DNA of 62,777 nucleotides, filler included. It is 12 parts of 12 records of this genome, joined end to end, with 100 filler letters (N's around TTAATTAATTAA, not from the genome) between each part and the next. Parts side by side here need not be neighbours in the genome. Positions count along the whole stretch, not along the records: positions 12,969 to 19,265 come from SRR7504441_17303; 11 more parts are not named here. The stretch is one strand, 5' to 3'. A model generated the notes under the pieces. It was not told the DNA's origin. It was given only the letters and a program-made list of their open reading frames with translations, and made no database searches. Position 1 is the stretch's first letter, and each line of letters starts with the position of its first letter. This document shows, piece by piece, positions 12,869 through 23,138 of this stretch. The translations under genes and the position numbers were made by a program.

Positions 12869-12968
12869 NNNNNNNNNNNNNNNNNNNNNNNNNNNNNNNN
12901 NNNNNNNNNNNNTTAATTAATTAANNNNNNNNNNNNNNNNNNNNNNNNNNNNNNNNNNNNNNNNNNNN
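12869..12968. other. Artificial contig spacer (N44-TTAATTAATTAA-N44); identical spacers at 19266, 23039, 27468, 32184, 36046, 39455, 43253, 50087, 56322, 59593
   Basis: Eleven identical 100-nt blocks with stops in all six frames; genes are truncated at them. Confidence 0.99.
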
Positions 12969-13229
12969 CCCTGAGCGGTGCCGGCAGAGCTTAGAGGTCT
13001 GGACCAGTACCTGTGAGAAGATCGACGCGTGCAAGGAGCAGGCGGGCGCCGGGGGACGGCGCGGGGGGTGAGGGCGGGTCAGATCATGCTGCTGGAGGCG
13101 GAGCTGGAGAGCAAGTCGGGGAAGAAACCCGGGGATGAGATCGATAACAATGTGCTCGAATCCGGCGAGACGGCAAAGCAGTACATAGATCGGATCCGCC
13201 GGGAGGAAAAGGCGGTGGCCGGTTTCTAA
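12969..13229 (+). CDS. 3' end of a hypothetical protein, with GC-AG intron 13042-13082
   Basis: ...EKIDACKEQ|IMLLEAELESK... joins in frame when the 41-nt GC-AG intron is removed; the 5' part is lost at the spacer. Confidence 0.5.
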
Positions 13230-13341
13230 AATTAGCACTGAGCCGTTAATGGCAGCAACTGCAAGAGGAGATCCTGGCGCTGCCGTTAACTTCTATCCAG
13301 TTCGGGGCACAGGAGCCGCGGTCGGATTTAATTAATGTTTA

Positions 13342-16108
13342 ATGCGATCTGCCCGGGAGCAGATTGCCGTTACGAGAGCGGCGGGTGAGGTGGCGCGAGG
13401 GGCAGCTGCTGCAGGCCTTCCGGGTGCGGCACAGCCCCGGTGGCTGGTGACTCAAGGCCAGGCCCATTCAGCTGTGAACCAGGAACTAGGTGGGTTATTT
13501 AAGCCCTGCGCCGGCCGAGCCAGGGCAGCTGCGGGGGCCGGTGAGGAGATCATCCCGCTGACCGAAATCGGGAGGGACGGCGAGCCGGCTGACTCCGACT
13601 CCGAGGAGCAATCCAAGCATCTGGTGGAGGGAGAGCACGACGATGGCGGCGCGAGCGGACTGCCGGCTCTGGACAGCTCGGCCCTCCGGATGGTGCGGGT
13701 TGCGGTTGGCTGGCCGATGCCGTTATGGCAGGTGGATCAGAAGCTCGGGCCGTGCGTCGGCTCTTCGTTTCTGTTGTATCTGGAGGTTTTAGTGACGAAT
13801 GACGGAATTGAGCCTGTTTCAGGTGCTCAAAGTAAACGCTGTGCTGCTCTGCTGCTGGTGCCGGCTGGTGCCGGGTGGGAGGCCGATCCCCGGGGCAGGC
13901 TGGTTGCGCTGATTATTCCCTTCATTCTGTCACCACCTGACACGTTCAAGTGGTCCGAAATCACGGGCAACGGGCTGTACGGGGGAGAAGACCCAGGTGC
14001 TTCCTCTCGGACTAACGGACATTTAACGGACATTCAGGGCTGGATAATTCCTTCTTCTGCACTGGGGCGTACCCGACTGTGATAGATTTGTGGGGGTTTG
14101 CGTATCGAGTGGACGTGCCTGCCATCGCTTGCGAGCCAGTGACAATGTGTGAGTAGGTGGCTTACGCAATCACTTGGATCTTGTGCTTCGGACTTCAGCT
14201 GCTGGTTGCCTCCTAAAAGCCCGGGGCTTGACAGGCCAGCCAGGTCCTCGCTTGGCAGCTGAACGACGCAATCTGCGTCGCCGGGTGCGTTTCATCTCAT
14301 ATTTAATCCCCAACCGCCACGTCTGATGAGACCCTGGGCCAGCCGTGCTGACAGCGACTTTGCGGGGTCCGACGCCGGGAACACGCCGTTTCTGCACTCT
14401 GTGATGTGCTCGCTTTATTTCGGGATTCAGGACACTACAGTGGCGCGGCAGTACGCTCGTGACGTGACCGGCTGCTCGTCGGGCTGAGCTGAAATCTGAA
14501 GCAGGTGCTGGCTATATTAAAGCAAAAGGTGGAGTTCAAGCTGTTGATCGGGGTGTGAGCCGGCCAGTCTCTGCCTGACCTGCCGGCCGCAGGAGTTTCC
14601 TGTCGAGGATGAGGAGGAAGAAGAGCTAATTAATATGAGCTCCGTGGAGCTGATAGGCCGCGCGTTGGGGATTATTCTCTACATCGGTGACAGTGCCGGC
14701 GGCGGCAGCTCAGCCGGAGCAGGGCTCTTCCCGCTGACTTTCGCGGCGATGTATTATCTTTACGAGAACTACGACTCTTTCGGGTTCGCGTACGCTGTTC
14801 CGGCGATGGTAGCCCTGATGAGGTGGCAAGTACCGCCAAACGAGTTGAGCCCTCACAGGACGTTTGTGCCGTTGTTTGGAGTGCCGCTGTTGCTGAAACT
14901 CGAGACACGGGGCGGCAAGAACCTGTTCTGGCAGACCTTAGCTCGGAGTTTTGTGCTCAAGATCTTTATGGTCCGTTGCACGCCGTTGAATGCGGTTCGA
15001 ACGGAAGGCTAGGCGTATTCGATGCTTTACGTGTTTATCATAACTTCGCACGCGGAGAAGATCGGCGTGTGTCGGCAGATCTACATCGGCCAGGGCTTCT
15101 GGCAGCAGCAAGTTGTCGACCTGGCGCTTCTGGTGCCGACTGTTGGGATTAGGCCGACAGGTTGAGTGTAGGTGCTGCTCGATATCGTCGGCTGCTGGTT
15201 CAAGTGGCGGCAGGAGGTTCGGCCACAGTTCGACCAGGCGAGCTTAACACCTTCCTCATAAGGGAATAACCAGTCGGTCACAGGAGGCGCTGGCCGAGCG
15301 TGTGTCGGAGCTGGTCTACAGGTTAACACCTTCCTTATAAGGGAATAACTCGCTGGTAACAGGCAAGGCTATATCTGGACTGCGACCATGTACTCCCCGA
15401 TGCAGGTGCTTGCGCTATGGATTGAACCGTTGCTTGACCGGCCGTTCCAGCCTGCCTTGGGCATCTTGGGGACTGTACTGCTCTACTATCAACACACAGT
15501 CACTGTGGCCATCTCGCAGACACCGCCTCTTGTCGGCTGGAACTACCAGCAGGCACCGCCCTGCCCGTCCCAGTCCGACCGGTGCAGGTCAAGAGAATGT
15601 TCATCAGTGCCATGCTCGCTGTTCAAGTGTTCTCGCTGGTCGCGCCTGCCCGCCCAGCGTGCCTGACACCGGTTAAGGTGCCGGCGTGGACCTTTATTCA
15701 TGTAAAACCGGCCTGCGGACCTTACAACGGTTACCAGTCGCCTTACGACGCAATCAAGTGACTTAAAAATCCCGTTAGATCTCAGCTGGCGGTTCACAGG
15801 TCTCAAATCATGTGGGACTCGCCACACTGGCTCTTCACCGCTTTTTACTGGCTCTCGGGTGCCTCTCCTTGGCAGAGCCCTCCTCTGACTGGAGTGCAGT
15901 GCCCTCGATTGTATGGGCTCTGCTCACGGTGGTAGTGGTGGCCGCTGTCTCGTTCTCTGTCTGCAACGGACTTGTAAGCGGGGCTCGTGCCGGCTGAGAG
16001 GGCGCGCAGGTCAAGACACAGCTGGAGGAGAATTACGAGCAGCTCGACGATAATCATTTCGATAAGTCGCAGCTGCTCAACCGAGCCGAGCTCCGATTGT
16101 GGTACTGA
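13342..16108 (+). CDS. Transmembrane channel-like (TMC) family protein, multi-exon; start uncertain
   Basis: Spliced segments match TMC hallmarks: VDQKLGPCVGSSFLLYL, YIGQGFWQQQVVD, FDQEALAERVSELVYRQGYIWTATMYSP, PACGPYNG, C-terminal EQL..DKSQLL. Many ~40-nt introns. Confidence 0.72.
15238..15283 (+). mobile_element. Introner-like intron copy 1 (GC-AG, 46 nt)
   Basis: gcgagcTTAACACCTTCCTCATAAGGGAATAAccagtcggtcacag; removal restores FDQ|EAL; shares its core with copies 2 and 3. Confidence 0.6.
15322..15362 (+). mobile_element. Introner-like intron copy 2 (GT-AG, 41 nt)
   Basis: gTTAACACCTTCCTTATAAGGGAATAActcgctggtaacag; removal restores LVYR|QGY. Confidence 0.6.
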
Positions 16109-16392
16109 TACTAACTGATACTATAGATCGATAATAGATCGAGATCGATCTAAGAGCCTACACGTAAATAATCATTATACATACAGATATTTCATATAGG
16201 TCTACTACGTGTGCGTGCACGCCAATTGATCATAGATGTAGGTTTAATTATATCAAACGGTATTATAACTAGGAGTGGTGGCTTCTCGATAGCGCTTCAG
16301 AATGAAGCACACTTTAGCGATTCGATCCTATGGACACGACATCAACAGCTTGCAGCCCTGACTACAACATAACAAATACTCCCGCCGATTTC

Positions 16393-18990
16393 TCAGATGT
16401 TGGCGCTCGAGCCCTTGAATCCGTCAATATTGATCGGCTGCTGCGTCGCAGACTCCTCGGACCGGTCAGTGTGCTTATACTTAGCTAGCCGGCGCTGTGG
16501 CAGCTTCATCGCATCTCGTCTGAACGGGTCGCCCAGCTCGCGGGTGCACATGATCTCCACCACACAGGTCTTCTGCTCCTCCATCTGCAGCCTCAGCGCC
16601 TGCGCCCGCCGGTCACACCATCGCTGACCGTAGCCCGAACCTCCTTCAGGGCCGGGCCCACGTCCTCCTTGCGCTCCACCACAATCCCTACCAACCGTTC
16701 AGAGAGCAAGCCACTGCCAAGCCAAACCTTCAGCCATCATGCTCTTAGCCACAGCAGCGAACGACGGATTCTCGAGCTGAGTGCCGATGTAACGATCACC
16801 GAACCAGAGCACCTATCCCAACGCTCGAGGTGGGCACAGCCGCAGCGCAGACCTGATTCTTCTTCTCGGCGCCCCATTGGCCGTTATTGAACACAACAGC
16901 GGTGGTCGGGATCTGCTCGCGGACGCAGGTGAGCACTTCGTTCAGGCTCATCCCCCAGGCTCCGTCTCCCACGTATGCCACGCACGGCCGGTCGGGACGA
17001 GCCACCTGACAGGGCTTAACTCAGCACTGATGATAGACTGGGAGAGTGCACCTTGGCGCCCATTGCAGCAGGGAAGGCGTAGCCGCAGTTGCCGTAAGTC
17101 ATGGCTGCACAAGTCAAGTTAACCCATTATTCCCTTATGCGGAAGGTGCGTTAAGCTACCGGCCAGGAAGGAGCGCGGCTCGTCAAACTCCAGGTACCCA
17201 TTGGAGATCGAGCAAGAGTTGCCTAAACCACCCCCTCACACACACCCAGCGCCACTGCCGCGTACCAATGTCAGTCGCCACTACAGCGTCGCTCGGCATG
17301 GCCTCCCGCAGCGCCGCCAGCGCCTGCACCCGCGTTGGCTTTGTATCGGTTGAGAGCAGTTACCTCGCGTGGCCGAACATTACCCATCAGGCTCTCAGTA
17401 GGGACGCCCTCCGGCGCTTCGGCCGTCATCTGCTCCAACTCCTGCACAGCTATCAGCAGGCCCGAGCCCCGGCCGGGTACCTTCTTCCAGCGAGCCTTGT
17501 GCTCGTGCACCGCCGCCAGCCGCTGCTCCGAATTCTCCAAGCAGGCGATCCTCTGAGCTCGGTTCGCGAGTCTCGTACGAAGCGCGTCAGCTGCCAGCCG
17601 CGCGTCGGCTAGAATCCCAACGGCCGGGGTCTTGGTCAGCCCGATCCGCCGGTGGTCGATCTCCACTTGCACCTAAAAAGCTCTCAGGGCTCGTATTGCA
17701 GGTCGAGGGACCAATTTAGCACTCGAAGGCCAGTAGTCCATTCCATACTGCGGGTTGGTTCCAAACGGCGACATCCGGGTGCCCAGTGCCAGCACCTGGC
17801 CCAGTAGGTCGGCCAGCCGGCCCGCCGCCCGCGGGACACCACGTCGGCCTCGGAGATCTGGCGCATCGCTGCCTTGGAGCCGAGATACCCCAGGGGACCC
17901 ATCGCTAGCTCGTGGCTTGCCGGGAAGGCGTCGTTGTGCAGGTAGGTGGTGCAAACCTTCACCCGCCGGCTCAGCCCGTTCCGACCGAGAAACAACGGAC
18001 CGGTGAAGAGAGCAGCTCCGCGAGCGCCTTAGCAGACTCCATTGCGTTGCCCATCACAACCCCACCGCCCACAAGCAGCACAGGGTTACGCGCGTTGGCC
18101 AGCAGCTCGGCCGCCGCGTCCAGATCGGCCTCGGCCCCCGCCGATCGGCTGGGCAGCTGCGGCCGGCTCAGGGCTGGCCAGGTGCTGTGGCACATTCTCA
18201 GGCGGGATCACGAAATCATTTTCTCCGTAGAAGAAATCCCGGGGGATATTCAGCTGGGTAGGGCCGCACTCGGTCTTGGCGTAGTCAAAGCATCTGGCCC
18301 GGGTGATCTAACGGAATCTAACGGCCCCACACCGTGCGGTGATCTCCGCCATCCTTTGAGGGTTGTTCACGTGGCCCTGGAATTTGGTGCAGTCGGAGAA
18401 CATCGGCAGTTGATCCGCCTCTTGAAACCCGCCGAGCCCTTTTGTCAGGGTGCCAGCCTCCGGCGTGATGGCCACAACCGGCGAGTGCGCCCAGAAGGCG
18501 GCGTACATCCCGGTCACGAAGTTGGATATCCCGGGGCCTGCCGACCATACAGTCACCCATCATGGTTTTAACACTCTCGGCACCGTTCTGAGCCACGCAG
18601 ACGCCGTGCTTGTCCGAAACCCGGGCGTACCCGTCCGCCATGTGCACCGCGTTCTGCTCGTGCTGCCCGCCAGGCTCCGGCCCGCCCTCCTGCCAGCCGG
18701 ACCTGAACAGAGATGAAGCGTATCCCTGCGGCCGGGAAGAGGTCAAGTGCGTCCATGTAGGCCGAGCCGACGATCCCGAAGCAGTCACTCACCCGGCGCG
18801 ACCGGAGCGTCTCGACGAACGCCTCAGAGTTGGTCATGAGACCCTGCTCCACCTCGTCCGTGGCCGGGTGGGCGGCCGCCGCGACGGCGGGCTGGGCGGC
18901 GGGGGTGCGCGTGGCCGGCTTGGGGGCCTGGGTGGCTTTGGGGCGGCGGCAGGTCAGCCGGGCTGCGCAGAGGGCGGAGCGGCTGAGCAT
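16393..18990 (-). CDS. xsc: Sulfoacetaldehyde acetyltransferase (ThDP-dependent), 16 exons, N-terminal mitochondrial-type presequence
   Basis: Spliced protein: MTNSEAFVETL..FGIVGSAYMDALDLFPAAGIRF..HEQNAVHMADGYARVS..AQNGPGISNFVT..AAFWAHSPVVAITPE..GLGGFQE..YLHNDAFPASH..GPLGYLGSKAAM..TDIGN..PRSFLAAMTYGNCGYAFP..GDGAWGMS..FNNGQWGAEKKNQ..ELGDPFRRDA. These are Xsc-specific rather than generic acetolactate synthase motifs. All 15 introns are GT-AG (e.g. 18663-18702, 18538-18583, 18294-18332, 17105-17159). Confidence 0.93.
17105..17159 (-). mobile_element. Introner-like intron copy 3 (GT-AG, 55 nt) inside xsc
   Basis: gtagcTTAACgcACCTTCCGCATAAGGGAATAAtgggttaacttgacttgtgcag; removal restores SFLA|AMTYGNCG. 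Confidence 0.55.
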
Positions 18991-19153
18991 GGTGCGGCTG
19001 GGTTGTGTCCCGTACGGCCGCGAACAGGCAGTACGGAGCTCCTCGACGTGTGAAGAGGCGCCACAGAACGCCACGTGTCGTCCGTTAGTGTTAACCTCAT
19101 AGTAATTTCATAGGAATCGCCGCGTGGCGCTGACCCACCTCAGCACTGTGGCA

Positions 19154-19265
19154 ATGCGCGTGCTGGTGCTCAACGCCGGCAGCTCCAGCCTCAAGTCCGT
19201 TGGCCGGGCGGCAGGCCGGGACCGGCCGGGCAGGTGGGCGCTGTTCGGCTCGGGCGGCCTCCGGC
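19154..19265 (+). CDS. ackA: Acetate kinase family protein, 5' fragment truncated by contig end; intron 19195-19233
   Basis: MRVLVLNAGSSSLK|WALF after removing a 39-nt GT-AG intron; this is the acetate/propionate kinase N-terminal signature. Only ~24 codons are visible. Confidence 0.8.
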
Positions 19266-19705
19266 NNNNNNNNNNNNNNNNNNNNNNNNNNNNNNNNNNN
19301 NNNNNNNNNTTAATTAATTAANNNNNNNNNNNNNNNNNNNNNNNNNNNNNNNNNNNNNNNNNNNNGGCCCTCCTCGCTGCCCAGTGCCGGTGAGCTCACC
19401 CCCATATCCACCGGGGCATTACCCGACCCGTCCTGCCCGCCTCGCGCACCCTCCCCTTGCCTCCTCATGATCACCGTGTCTCGTCAGTACGGTTTGCGCC
19501 TCGCCGGCTGACCGCCTGTCGCTCCTGGCCGGTGGGCTCTTGGCCTGGCTGTACCCTCCATGCTTGGCTGTCACCCAAGCGGGGACCGGTCAGCCCCCCG
19601 CTCGGCGGCTGGCACTCCTCCGATCTGGGTCATCCCGCATGCCAAGTCATTGCCGATCGCTCCCCCGATCTGCTTGCACGTTGATCGTATGCCCTGCAGG
19701 ACAAG

Positions 19706-20879: not shown

Positions 20880-22820
20880 CTAGTGTCGCGTAATGGCGCG
20901 TTCATCGTAGTCCACTCCCTTGTGATTGAAATAGATGCACACGGCCGAGATATTGTCATCCGAGCCCAGATCCCAAGCCCGCATGCACAGCGCTTTGGCT
21001 CCAAAGTCCACGTGCCGCGCCGTCCGTGCCACATCCCTCGCCGCCTCCTCATTCGACACAGTGTCCCACACCCCGTCTGTGGCCAGCAGCAGGAAGTCGT
21101 CTTGAGGGCTCACACGCAACAAGCTAATCTCAGGCTCGGCCACCAGCCCGTGCTCTTTCATCGCCTGGTCCCCGATCGCTCGCGTGACTTGAATCTTCCC
21201 ACCCACGCGCGGCTTGCCATCCCGACCCTTAGTAATCGATCCGCCTGCCGCCAGCACTCGGTCCCTCTCGCTCTCCAGAGAGGCCGTGTGGTCCGTCGTC
21301 AACTGTCTGCCCTCACCTGCACTGTTCACCACAGCCCTGCAGTCGCCCGCATTGGCCAACAGCACAACCTGGCCTACCACCAGCACCACCAGCGCCGTGG
21401 CGCCACTCGAGTCGCCCAGCCCCGCGAATCCCCTATCCACCGACACGAACGCCCGCTGCAACGCCCCCGAAGCATCACCGGGTGTAAGTGCGAGCTCTGC
21501 CAGCACAGCACCAGGCATCTTCCGGTTAGCAAAATCCGCTGCGAGCTGGCCTCCGTGCCCATCAAACACGCCGAACAGGTGCACGCCAGCAGCGTGCGGG
21601 GCCGCGAGCTCGTGGCAGACAAAGCTCCTGTCTTCCATCTTGTCTGAACCCCTCCGGCCAGGCATCGCTTCGTGCCCACCAGCACAGCTGAACCCAGCGG
21701 TCTGATTGGCTTGGACCGACGCAAATACGGCCGACCAGTCAACATCGGCCGCGCTGCCCTCGCGGACCACTAACTCGACAGGTGCTGTCGCCGGTTCGGC
21801 AGAAGCCGGCTCAGGTGCCGCTGGGCTCAGCTCGGCAAGCTCTGACGGGGCAGACATGGGATATGCCCGGGCCGCCTGCTCCAGCTGGGAGCACACCACG
21901 GCCATGGTGGGCCGACTGGCTGGGTCGGCGGTCCAGCAGCTGTCCACTAGCTGGTTGAGTGCAGCCAGGCTATAGTCCGCTGACGGAGACCCTAAATCGC
22001 AGATAGCTTCGGGCGTGAGCTGGTGTGGTCGAAGCTGCTTTGTACAGACAGCCTGCATCAGCGCCTGCTGCGAGTACGAGGCCTCAATCACTGTGTGGAA
22101 CTGAAGGTCGTCGTCGCACCGCTTGACATCGGAGTACGGCACGGTGCCAGTGAGAAGTTCGTTGAGCGACACCCCGAACGAGTAGACATCTGAGGCCACA
22201 GTGAACGGCTCCTTCTTGAGCAGCTCGGGGGCCATGTACACCATTGTGCCCACCATGAACTTTTTAAAATACCCGCCCGACGGCCCGGTGGCCACCGAGG
22301 GCTCAAACCCACGCTGCAAGCTCTCGATGCTCTCCGCGTTCTCAAGGTCGCATAGCACCGCGCGCCAATCGGCCCCGACCACGCAGTTGCCCGGCTTGAT
22401 GTCCTTGCTCACGTGCCCCAGCCGGCTGTGCAGGAACTCGATCCCCTGGGCGAAGTCCAATCCAAGCGACAGCCGCAGTCCGACAGGCAGCTCGCTGGCC
22501 CCCGAATGGTGCAGCAGATGGAACAGGCTGCCGCGGGTGTACTCCGGCATCACGATCGCGTAGTTGGGCGCGCTGTTGATCACCCCGATGATCGGGACCA
22601 CCCGCGCGAACTGGGCGGCCTGCTGGAGGAGCCCGACCTCCTTCCAGAATCGGCCCAGCCGTTCCCGGCCGGTGATCTTGGCGCGCTTGACCACGACCGG
22701 TTGGCCGTCTGGGAGGGCCGAGAAGTAGACGTGGCTGTTCTTGGTGTTCTGGATCGTGCGGGCCACCGGCAGGCTCGCCGGGGCGTGCACACACACCTCG
22801 AGATCCACGGGCAATGCCAT
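20880..22820 (-). CDS. Protein kinase (TKL-like) fused to PP2C phosphatase
   Basis: Kinase: VVKR, DIKPGN, VGTMVYMAPELL, SDVYSFG, CWTADPASRP. PP2C: MEDR, FGVFDGHGG, ANAGDCRA, TRAIGD, ATDGVWD, GSDDNIS. Intronless 646 aa. Confidence 0.9.
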   Translation of the reverse strand: MALPVDLEVCVHAPASLPVARTIQNTKNSHVYFSALPDGQPVVVKRAKITGRERLGRFWKEVGLLQQAAQFARVVPIIGVINSAPNYAIVMPEYTRGSLFHLLHHSGASELPVGLRLSLGLDFAQGIEFLHSRLGHVSKDIKPGNCVVGADWRAVLCDLENAESIESLQRGFEPSVATGPSGGYFKKFMVGTMVYMAPELLKKEPFTVASDVYSFGVSLNELLTGTVPYSDVKRCDDDLQFHTVIEASYSQQALMQAVCTKQLRPHQLTPEAICDLGSPSADYSLAALNQLVDSCWTADPASRPTMAVVCSQLEQAARAYPMSAPSELAELSPAAPEPASAEPATAPVELVVREGSAADVDWSAVFASVQANQTAGFSCAGGHEAMPGRRGSDKMEDRSFVCHELAAPHAAGVHLFGVFDGHGGQLAADFANRKMPGAVLAELALTPGDASGALQRAFVSVDRGFAGLGDSSGATALVVLVVGQVVLLANAGDCRAVVNSAGEGRQLTTDHTASLESERDRVLAAGGSITKGRDGKPRVGGKIQVTRAIGDQAMKEHGLVAEPEISLLRVSPQDDFLLLATDGVWDTVSNEEAARDVARTARHVDFGAKALCMRAWDLGSDDNISAVCIYFNHKGVDYDERAITRH

Positions 22821-23138
22821 CAGTGCTCGAGCGAGATGAGTCGTTGTCAGCAGACCAATCGGAAGGAGTTGGAGCCTTTGACCGGCAGGCGGGAGCGCCT
22901 ATGTTGCAACTCGGGTACGAGTAGACAACAGGACTTCTCCTATTCTAGACTCGTGAAACGATTGCACTTGTGTCAGGTCTTAAATGAGTTACTGATGCGT
23001 TCAGTCTACGTTCAGTCTAACTAGTACATGACATGTAANNNNNNNNNNNNNNNNNNNNNNNNNNNNNNNNNNNNNNNNNNNNTTAATTAATTAANNNNNN
23101 NNNNNNNNNNNNNNNNNNNNNNNNNNNNNNNNNNNNNN

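Follow-up and report, generated by a model that had tools for sequence, protein, structure and literature searches.

The origin of new introns is a long-standing question. Introners are its best-documented answer; they range from 67 nt to several kb and have target duplications of 3–9 bp. The locus described here raises the question on a smaller scale: can three near-identical introns of 41–55 nt, lying in two unrelated genes, have come from one short sequence unit? The introns (copies 1–3) occur in a stretch of DNA of 62,777 nucleotides (the window), all on one 6.3-kb contig of an uncultured marine protist (SRR7504441_17303, positions 12969–19265) that carries two convergent genes. Host gene 1, a predicted orphan, houses copies 1 and 2, and host gene 2, for a putative sulfoacetaldehyde acetyltransferase (Xsc)-like enzyme, houses copy 3. 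In the best reading the three segments are real spliceosomal introns derived from one short unit, splicing being shown for copy 3 and predicted for copies 1 and 2. A first-pass annotation had proposed an introner-like family. That the trio is such a family, of low copy number and with a core that is mobile sequence, is a proposition to which we give about equal weight for and against.

The window consists of 12 contigs laid end to end and separated by 22 runs of 44 N, forming 11 pairs that each surround a 12-base spacer (joins at 12869–12968, 19266–19365 and nine more such places). Arguments from neighbourhood are therefore valid only inside one contig. The introns and their cores, numbered along the window, are as follows.

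15238–15283, plus strand: copy 1, GC..AG, 46 nt, intron of host gene 1, with an alternative GT donor at 15217
15322–15362, plus strand: copy 2, GT..AG, 41 nt, host gene 1, 38 nt downstream of copy 1
17105–17159, minus strand: copy 3, GT..AG, 55 nt, phase 1, Xsc-like gene, validated by RNA
15249–15269, plus strand: 21-nt core of copy 1, exact pattern match
15328–15348, plus strand: 21-nt core of copy 2, exact pattern match
17127–17147, minus strand: 21-nt core of copy 3, exact pattern match

Three introns share an invariant core

The coordinates, ends and sequences of the three introns agree with their description in the first-pass annotation. Each intron contains the core ACCTTCC-NN-ATAAGGGAATAA, which comprises 19 fixed bases and the variable pair NN (21 nt in total), and TTAAC stands before it; copy 3 carries a GC insert. 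The claim that the core is common to the three introns held up well, with three matches in the window at up to three mismatches compared with none in 100 dinucleotide shuffles. When the 19 fixed bases were scanned with up to six mismatches, the window yielded the three copies at zero mismatches, none at one to four, one match at five and two at six, while the shuffle means at four, five and six mismatches were 0.1, 0.8 and 3.5. The reported palindrome, CCTTATAAGG, is perfect in copy 2 and in no other copy.

Copies 1 and 2 have 84% identity across 44 nt (15241–15284 and 15320–15363), with the intron borders as the limits of the repeat. The flanking exons were thus not duplicated with the introns, and the repeat is no segmental duplication with exons in it. 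None of the 19 fixed core bases differs between these two copies, compared with six of the 23 other aligned bases. Copy 3 resembles the others only over the first ~33 nt and not over the full intron. An all-against-all comparison of 21 introns of both genes gave scores of 47, 46 and 34 for the trio, the best score in 200 shuffles being 28. All remaining pairs scored 21 or less, near the shuffles, so the other introns are mutually unrelated, as had been stated, apart from one weak 13-nt match. This weak second motif, AT(T/C)CCGTTAGATC, occurs at 18294–18332 (minus strand) and 15758–15799 (plus strand) with 12 of 13 positions identical and a score of 21. It is tandemly duplicated inside the Xsc intron and does not rise above the best chance pair in shuffles. 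The transcript-sense orientation emphasized in the annotation is drawn from three cases, and any spliced intron must show it.

Anatomy of the shared block

The block common to the three introns begins at the donor or immediately after it; the donor reads GCGAGC in copy 1, G|GT in copy 2 and GTAGC in copy 3. Its order is donor, TTAAC and the invariant core, with TAAC at the end. From this TAAC exactly 13 nt lead through the acceptor AG in all three copies, and these 13-nt tails differ among the copies. The neighbouring introns proven by RNA carry TGAC, TGAG or TAAG at 9–13 nt from their ends. The shared block plausibly supplies both the donor and the branch site and, as read from its sequence, would bring all that a minimal intron of the host organism requires, the final 13 bases excepted.

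Among the 23 introns modelled on the contig the three copies have the highest AT content, their guanine plus cytosine (GC) content being 0.41–0.50 compared with a mean of 0.63, equal to that of the exons, for the other 20; this composition fits a foreign origin. Their lengths of 41–55 nt compare with a median of 42 nt for the 23 modelled introns. They fold no better than shuffled sequences (z-scores of 0.32, −0.58 and 0.39). The palindrome forms no stable hairpin, the ends of the copies have only short GTTA..TAAC complementarities, and a search of the contig against Rfam found nothing at E≤1. A cargo of the small nucleolar RNA or mirtron type is ruled out by the folding, the Rfam result and the small size. 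U12-type introns have the donor /RTATCCTT and the branch site TCCTTRAY near the acceptor. This class was also rejected, as the donors GTTAAC, GTAGCT and GCGAGC do not fit and Rfam returned nothing on the contig.

Splicing of the three copies

For copy 3, splicing is proven. One contig of a marine poly-A RNA library joins position 17104 to 17160 and omits exactly the 55 nt between them (CT..AC on the plus strand), which provides for this copy the confirmation by RNA that the annotation had called for. The RNA contig is 671 nt long with a depth of 4.06, has 56 nt on the shorter side of the joint and is ~98% identical to the window (9 differing letters among the 478 aligned letters listed). It also skips five more segments of the Xsc-like gene, of 40–46 nt each, and a second contig skips a seventh. 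The exon open reading frames (ORFs) that flank copy 3 match the NCBIfam model NF005713 colinearly, at 409–431 and 429–456, and the spliced codons, as read from the sequence, continue the Xsc profile without a gap. DNA contigs that end or jump near 17050–17102 and 16933 are less than 90% alike, look like the xsc genes of other organisms and were not used as evidence.

Copies 1 and 2 are predicted to be spliced. The prediction comes from our own gene model, which combines codon log-odds with GT/GC..AG introns of 36–70 nt and which recovers six of the seven RNA-supported Xsc introns exactly, copy 3 among them. The model placed the borders of copy 2 exactly at all four intron penalties tried. For copy 1 it ends an intron at 15283, the acceptor of the copy, and starts it at the GT at 15217, giving 67 nt. 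The coding frame shifts from 0 to 1 across copy 1 and returns from 1 to 0 across copy 2. Since the donors at 15217 and 15238 are 21 nt apart and in frame, the GC donor claimed earlier for copy 1 (15238) is possible but ambiguous; the gene model prefers the GT at 15217, and the GC donor is not established. Only two sequencing runs contain part of the region, 0.07 and 0.06 of its sampled words, with a depth of 0 in the bins of 15046–15627, and the DNA contigs reach none of the three intron sites. The population in these runs is ~95–98% identical to the window. The GT donor at 15217–15226 (plus strand) opens with the same 10 bases, GTTCGGCCAC, as the modelled Xsc intron 17324–17378 (17369–17378, minus strand), and the donor at 16640 that is proven by RNA, GTTCGGGCTAC, is similar to it as well.

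The core recurs in a second marine eukaryote

A metagenome scan with the 21-base pattern found 11 loci, one of them with two matches, for a total of 12 matches. Six loci with seven matches are lone occurrences in AT-rich contigs that have no common context, although two of them (L006 and L010) are identical in sequence; these six look like chance matches. As a calibration, an 18-base version of the core was sought in prokaryotes, where 14 single matches in 14 taxa were found in 596 Gb, compared with ~17 expected from the size. Viral contigs contained no match to this version.

Four contigs of one metagenome (L002, L003, L007 and L009; GC content 0.43–0.52), from a different marine eukaryote of lower GC content, together hold five copies with the common extension ..AATAATCAAT. 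Two of the five lie on L003, and all 19 fixed bases are identical in every copy. Direct repeats of host sequence bracket the core in three of the five copies. They measure 34 nt with a period of 54 in L002, 43 nt with a period of 68 in L003, and 31 nt with one mismatch and a period of 61 for the second copy of L003. A script found that the 34-nt and 43-nt cases each permit exactly one GT..AG excision of one period, on one strand only and none on the other; the same single GT..AG unit was derived by hand for the 31-nt case. On the excision strand the core reads ..TTATTCCCTTAT-NN-GGAAG|GT, and the target is left in one copy once the unit is excised. This strand is, in L002, the coding strand of a gene for a Slo-like channel with RCK domains. 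The duplication provides the GT and the core the AG in this second organism, so that the orientation of the core to splicing is opposite to that in the window. Insertion in several copies, with long target duplications, speaks for a mobile sequence rather than for a regulatory motif.

The same contigs abound in units in which (TTAGGG)n or short local microsatellites (ATTCAAG, GATCTT and similar) are bracketed by direct repeats of host-gene sequence of 10–55 nt, with periods of 54–102 nt. Such bracketed fillers lie at 611–690, 433–545 and 1170–1245 in L002, at 545–665, 245–335 and 1283–1354 in L003, at 1761–1850 and 1905–1990 in L007, and at 609–735 and 820–960 in L009; those of the telomere type begin with AATT. 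These units look like introns or insertions that arose from a staggered break with filler or telomerase synthesis. The literature searched on telomeric-repeat introns and direct repeats yielded no description of units made of a duplication plus filler.

Comparison with known intron systems

Introners are on record from Micromonas (classes IE-A to IE-D), Aureococcus, dinoflagellates, haptophytes and other organisms. Introner families are described as having at least four introns and target duplications of 3–9 bp, with either splice site borne by the element (Gozashti 2022, PMC9860276). The site borne is the 5′ one in introners of the Chrysochromulina type and the 3′ one in those of the Symbiodinium type (PMC9860276), and the target duplications of Polarella/Symbiodinium introners measure 3–8 nt (10.1101/2020.10.14.339549). 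The IE-C introners of Micromonas, the shortest class compared here, average 67 nt and number 221 copies (Verhelst 2013, PMC3879977). In all, 1,093 introner families have been reported in 201 species, some derived from retrotransposons, along with eight horizontal transfers (Gozashti 2025, PMC12130899).

The trio resembles introners in several respects. It presents what introners are recognized by, similar introns at non-homologous sites in non-paralogous genes, here near-identical ones in a marine protist host. Removal by the spliceosome, a second hallmark, holds for copy 3 and by prediction for copies 1 and 2. A GC donor is possible in both systems, and introners carry one splice site while the other comes from flanking or duplicated sequence. 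The differences concern numbers and sizes. Described families have at least four and usually hundreds to thousands of members, whereas three are known here; the IE-C mean of 67 nt contrasts with 41–55 nt and a shared block of ~30 nt in the trio; and the duplications of 3–9 bp contrast with the 31–43 nt seen in the second organism. Many introner families, though not all, have target-site duplications, terminal inverted repeats or both; for the trio no link to such inverted repeats or to a transposase emerged. Within the portions of the introner papers compared, neither introners of 41–55 nt nor duplications of 30–40 nt are mentioned. Four 12–13-nt strings of the core occur in nine papers; judged by titles and abstracts, none of the eight listed concerns introns.

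A second close parallel is found in fungi, where same-gene duplications (SGD) and low-copy introns (LCI) have ordinary length and folding energy (van der Burgt 2012 via Collemare 2013, PMC3609843). A test based on the expansion of hidden Markov models separates low-copy from high-copy duplicated introns in these organisms (PMC3609843). Like the trio, the SGD and LCI introns are few, near-identical, found in the same gene plus an unrelated gene, not accompanied by exon duplication, and similar to ordinary introns in length and folding energy. Of the features used by Collemare 2013, near-identity of introns that lack an exon duplication, with one in an unrelated gene, applies to the trio, and length and folding energy are like those of non-duplicated introns. 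A low-copy family should also grow no more than two-fold in a profile search; here a scan of the window with up to six mismatches added no copy. The fungal introns differ in that they belong to another kingdom and are much longer, and in that the core of the trio is also a duplication-flanked insertion in another organism.

The Mamiellales compartment BOC1 has many AT-rich introns of 40–65 bp per gene (Moreau 2012, PMC3491373). As in the window, intron-dense genes there contrast with long uninterrupted ORFs elsewhere in the assembly. However, BOC1 introns are AT-rich singletons, whereas the ordinary introns of the window have the GC content of the exons (0.63) and three introns are copies of one another. 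The hosts also differ, as the top matches of the window proteins have 34–61% identity with no Mamiellales names among the named best matches. An assignment to the BOC1 type was rejected: the size fits, while the AT-richness and the Mamiellales relatives do not.

Insertion of telomeric repeats at double-strand breaks was reportedly described by Nergadze in 2007. Interstitial TTAGGG tracts are pervasive in coccolithophores (PMC13518057). The likeness to telomeric insertion is limited to the second organism, in which the contigs with the core carry (TTAGGG)n bracketed by duplicated host sequence; the window contains no telomere repeats.

Weighing a mobile unit against other origins

In the favoured reading, a short unit would have been inserted or copied into new exon positions, from which the spliceosome removes it. 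The unit would supply the donor and the branch-site-like TAAC, the 13-nt tail would lie outside it, and local spread would have placed three copies in 1.9 kb, across two convergent genes. For the second organism, the long, variable duplications suggest entry by a staggered break or a target-primed insertion, which they fit better than a transposase with fixed cuts. The insertion mechanism is inferred for the second organism; for the window copies we infer the insertion origin, the branch-site role and the mobility route. The introner reading of the first-pass annotation survives in part. In its favour are near-copies at non-homologous sites in unrelated genes, the splicing of copy 3 and the mobile-like behaviour of the core in another marine eukaryote; against it stands the occurrence of three local copies.

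Several observations weigh against a mobile family. The known copies number three, all within 1.9 kb on one 6.3-kb contig; the other 11 contigs (~56 kb) contain no core, including degenerate forms with one to four mismatches, and the metagenome scan contained no further copy of the TTAAC-type version of the window. Compared with the four or more introns of a described family, the known members number the three of the window. The splicing of copies 1 and 2 is a prediction, as the RNA contigs cover neither, and the gene that holds them is itself a predicted orphan. Marks of target-site duplication are weak in the window. They were sought by comparing the upstream exon end with the intron end and the intron start with the downstream exon start. 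Copies 1 and 3 did not exceed the null; for copy 2 the final 11 nt are similar to those that close the upstream exon (GCTGGT..ACAG), with a score of 6 that has p ~0.03 against random 13-mers and was reached by three of 110 mismatched exon/intron pairs. The window has no general excess of duplication-flanked units, since its 19 close repeats, compared with 4–11 in shuffles, are mostly coding repeats. The 36 window ORFs that were scanned include no transposase, integrase or reverse transcriptase family, so the search for a transposase suggested earlier was negative there. In the second organism, two of the five copies (L007 and L009) lack a simple flanking duplication, theirs being degenerate or nested. 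Finally, the core faces opposite ways relative to splicing in the two organisms, and a single role in splicing therefore fails to account for its conservation.

The leading alternative is purely local copying, which we regard as distinctly less probable than a mobile family. One ordinary tiny intron would have been duplicated twice within a 2-kb neighbourhood, either by way of RNA, the excised intron being reverse-spliced into transcripts close by and then reverse-transcribed and recombined, or by local recombination, with no dispersed family and no mobility encoded by the element. The confinement of the copies to 1.9 kb, with none elsewhere in the 62.8 kb, agrees with such copying, and copies 1 and 2 are alike over their full length. 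All three copies have lengths and folding z-scores like ordinary introns, as in the fungal SGD and LCI cases, and all keep the sense orientation although the genes lie on opposite strands, as expected of an RNA route. Copies 1 and 3 also lack a significant target duplication. However, copy 3 is alike only over its first ~33 nt, and local copying leaves unexplained why the three copies are compositional outliers, why copies 1 and 2 have no changes in 19 core bases and six in the 23 others, and why a different organism has the same core in a recurring insertion flanked by duplications.

Selection on a functional intronic motif, such as a protein-binding site or a splicing or regulatory element made common by convergence or conservation, is improbable. 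The MADS/SRF CArG box is CC(A/T)6GG, which we take the core to resemble. The core is indeed invariant at 19 positions while its flanks vary, copy 2 holds a perfect CC(A/T)6GG palindrome, and the TAAC, always 13 nt from the acceptor, lies where a role in splicing is conceivable. Nonetheless, only one of the three copies matches the box; copies 1 and 3 have a C or G inside the six A/T positions, and the two variable bases fall within the supposed box itself. Moreover, the motif is absent on either strand from promoters, other introns and the rest of the 62.8 kb, the 20 other introns of both genes lack it, no stable RNA structure or Rfam match was found on the contig, and the target duplications that accompany the core in the second organism mark an insertion rather than a conserved site. 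Slighter still is the chance that a coincidental 19-base match fell in a repeat of an unrelated genome. Chance matches do occur, as the six loci (seven matches) of the metagenome scan and the 14 prokaryote singletons illustrate, and the two families share nothing beyond the 21-base core and place it in opposite orientation to splicing. But the match would have had to fall in a multi-copy, GT..AG-forming insertion in genes of a marine eukaryote, a very small share of the metagenome, and the 19 fixed bases are identical in all five copies of the second organism.

A wider reading, which we consider unlikely, though less so than selection or coincidence, takes the 21-base core as the working end of an intron-generating element of ~20–30 nt that would be common to unrelated marine protists, probably through horizontal transfer. 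Staggered or target-primed breaks would duplicate 10–40 nt of the target, and whichever way the insertion lies, it could be spliced out as an intron. One host would receive the branch site and the AG from the core and the GT from the duplication; in the window host the core would give the GT and the branch site.

Host genes and the surrounding window

The two genes that house the copies are as follows.

14635–16108, plus strand: host gene 1, a predicted orphan, membrane-like gene, from the codon-usage scan and our own gene model; houses copies 1 and 2
16393–18810, minus strand: host gene 2, encoding an Xsc-like thiamine-diphosphate enzyme, from Pfam, NCBIfam and the RNA contigs; houses copy 3

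Host gene 1 is predicted by the gene model to be a multi-exon gene with ~8 introns of 39–67 nt, and its codon-usage scores are positive, with frame changes. No Pfam family matched the gene, and a search of 1.84 billion representative proteins with its exon 1 found nothing at E≤0.001. Host gene 2 contains the Pfam domains TPP_enzyme_N and TPP_enzyme_C, and the Xsc models NF005713 and TIGR03457 were the top matches for all eight of its exon ORFs, which indicates an Xsc-like enzyme. It has more than 12 introns of 37–57 nt, seven of them skipped by RNA contigs, and the 5′ end of its model is uncertain. A word-based search with one Xsc exon scored no full-length relatives.

Within 16393–19265, this intron-rich eukaryotic Xsc gene stands head to head with an ORF that stops at the contig end after 37 codons. 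The opening 13 residues of the ORF have a weak similarity to the acetate kinase family (E 0.14, short of the cutoff). Acetyl phosphate is the product of Xsc. If the match is real, Xsc and acetate kinase would form a functional pair that gains ATP from sulfonates in a protist.

Across 12969–19265 an intron of ~42 nt occurs roughly every 100–200 nt in both genes (23 modelled, seven RNA-supported), in strong contrast to the other contigs, which carry uninterrupted ORFs of 500–776 codons with Pfam domains. The GC content of the contigs spans 0.45 to 0.68, and they may come from different genome compartments or even different organisms. On the minus strand at 20880–22898 lies a single-exon fusion of a kinase with PP2C, whose top matches are plant VTC3-type proteins at 34–35% identity. 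Nothing closer was found among the scored candidates, drawn from 5.8 billion clusters, which suggests a sparsely sampled lineage. A CDK20-like kinase in the window has a top match at 61% identity, with the top named matches at ~50%; together with dynein heavy-chain genes it would fit a flagellate.

Implications for intron origin

If the trio reflects only local duplication, it would be a clean but ordinary example of low-copy intron copying. If the core is mobile, a unit of ~30 nt made up essentially of donor and branch site would demonstrate that very little sequence suffices to create an intron where introns measure ~42 nt. If the link to the second organism holds, the core with its 31–43-nt duplications, found beside telomere-repeat fillers, would point to the creation of introns by break repair or target-primed insertion. 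Should the core prove to be the working end of an element common to unrelated marine protists, it would represent the smallest introner known and a new insertion chemistry, with long, variable target duplications and telomere-repeat fillers.

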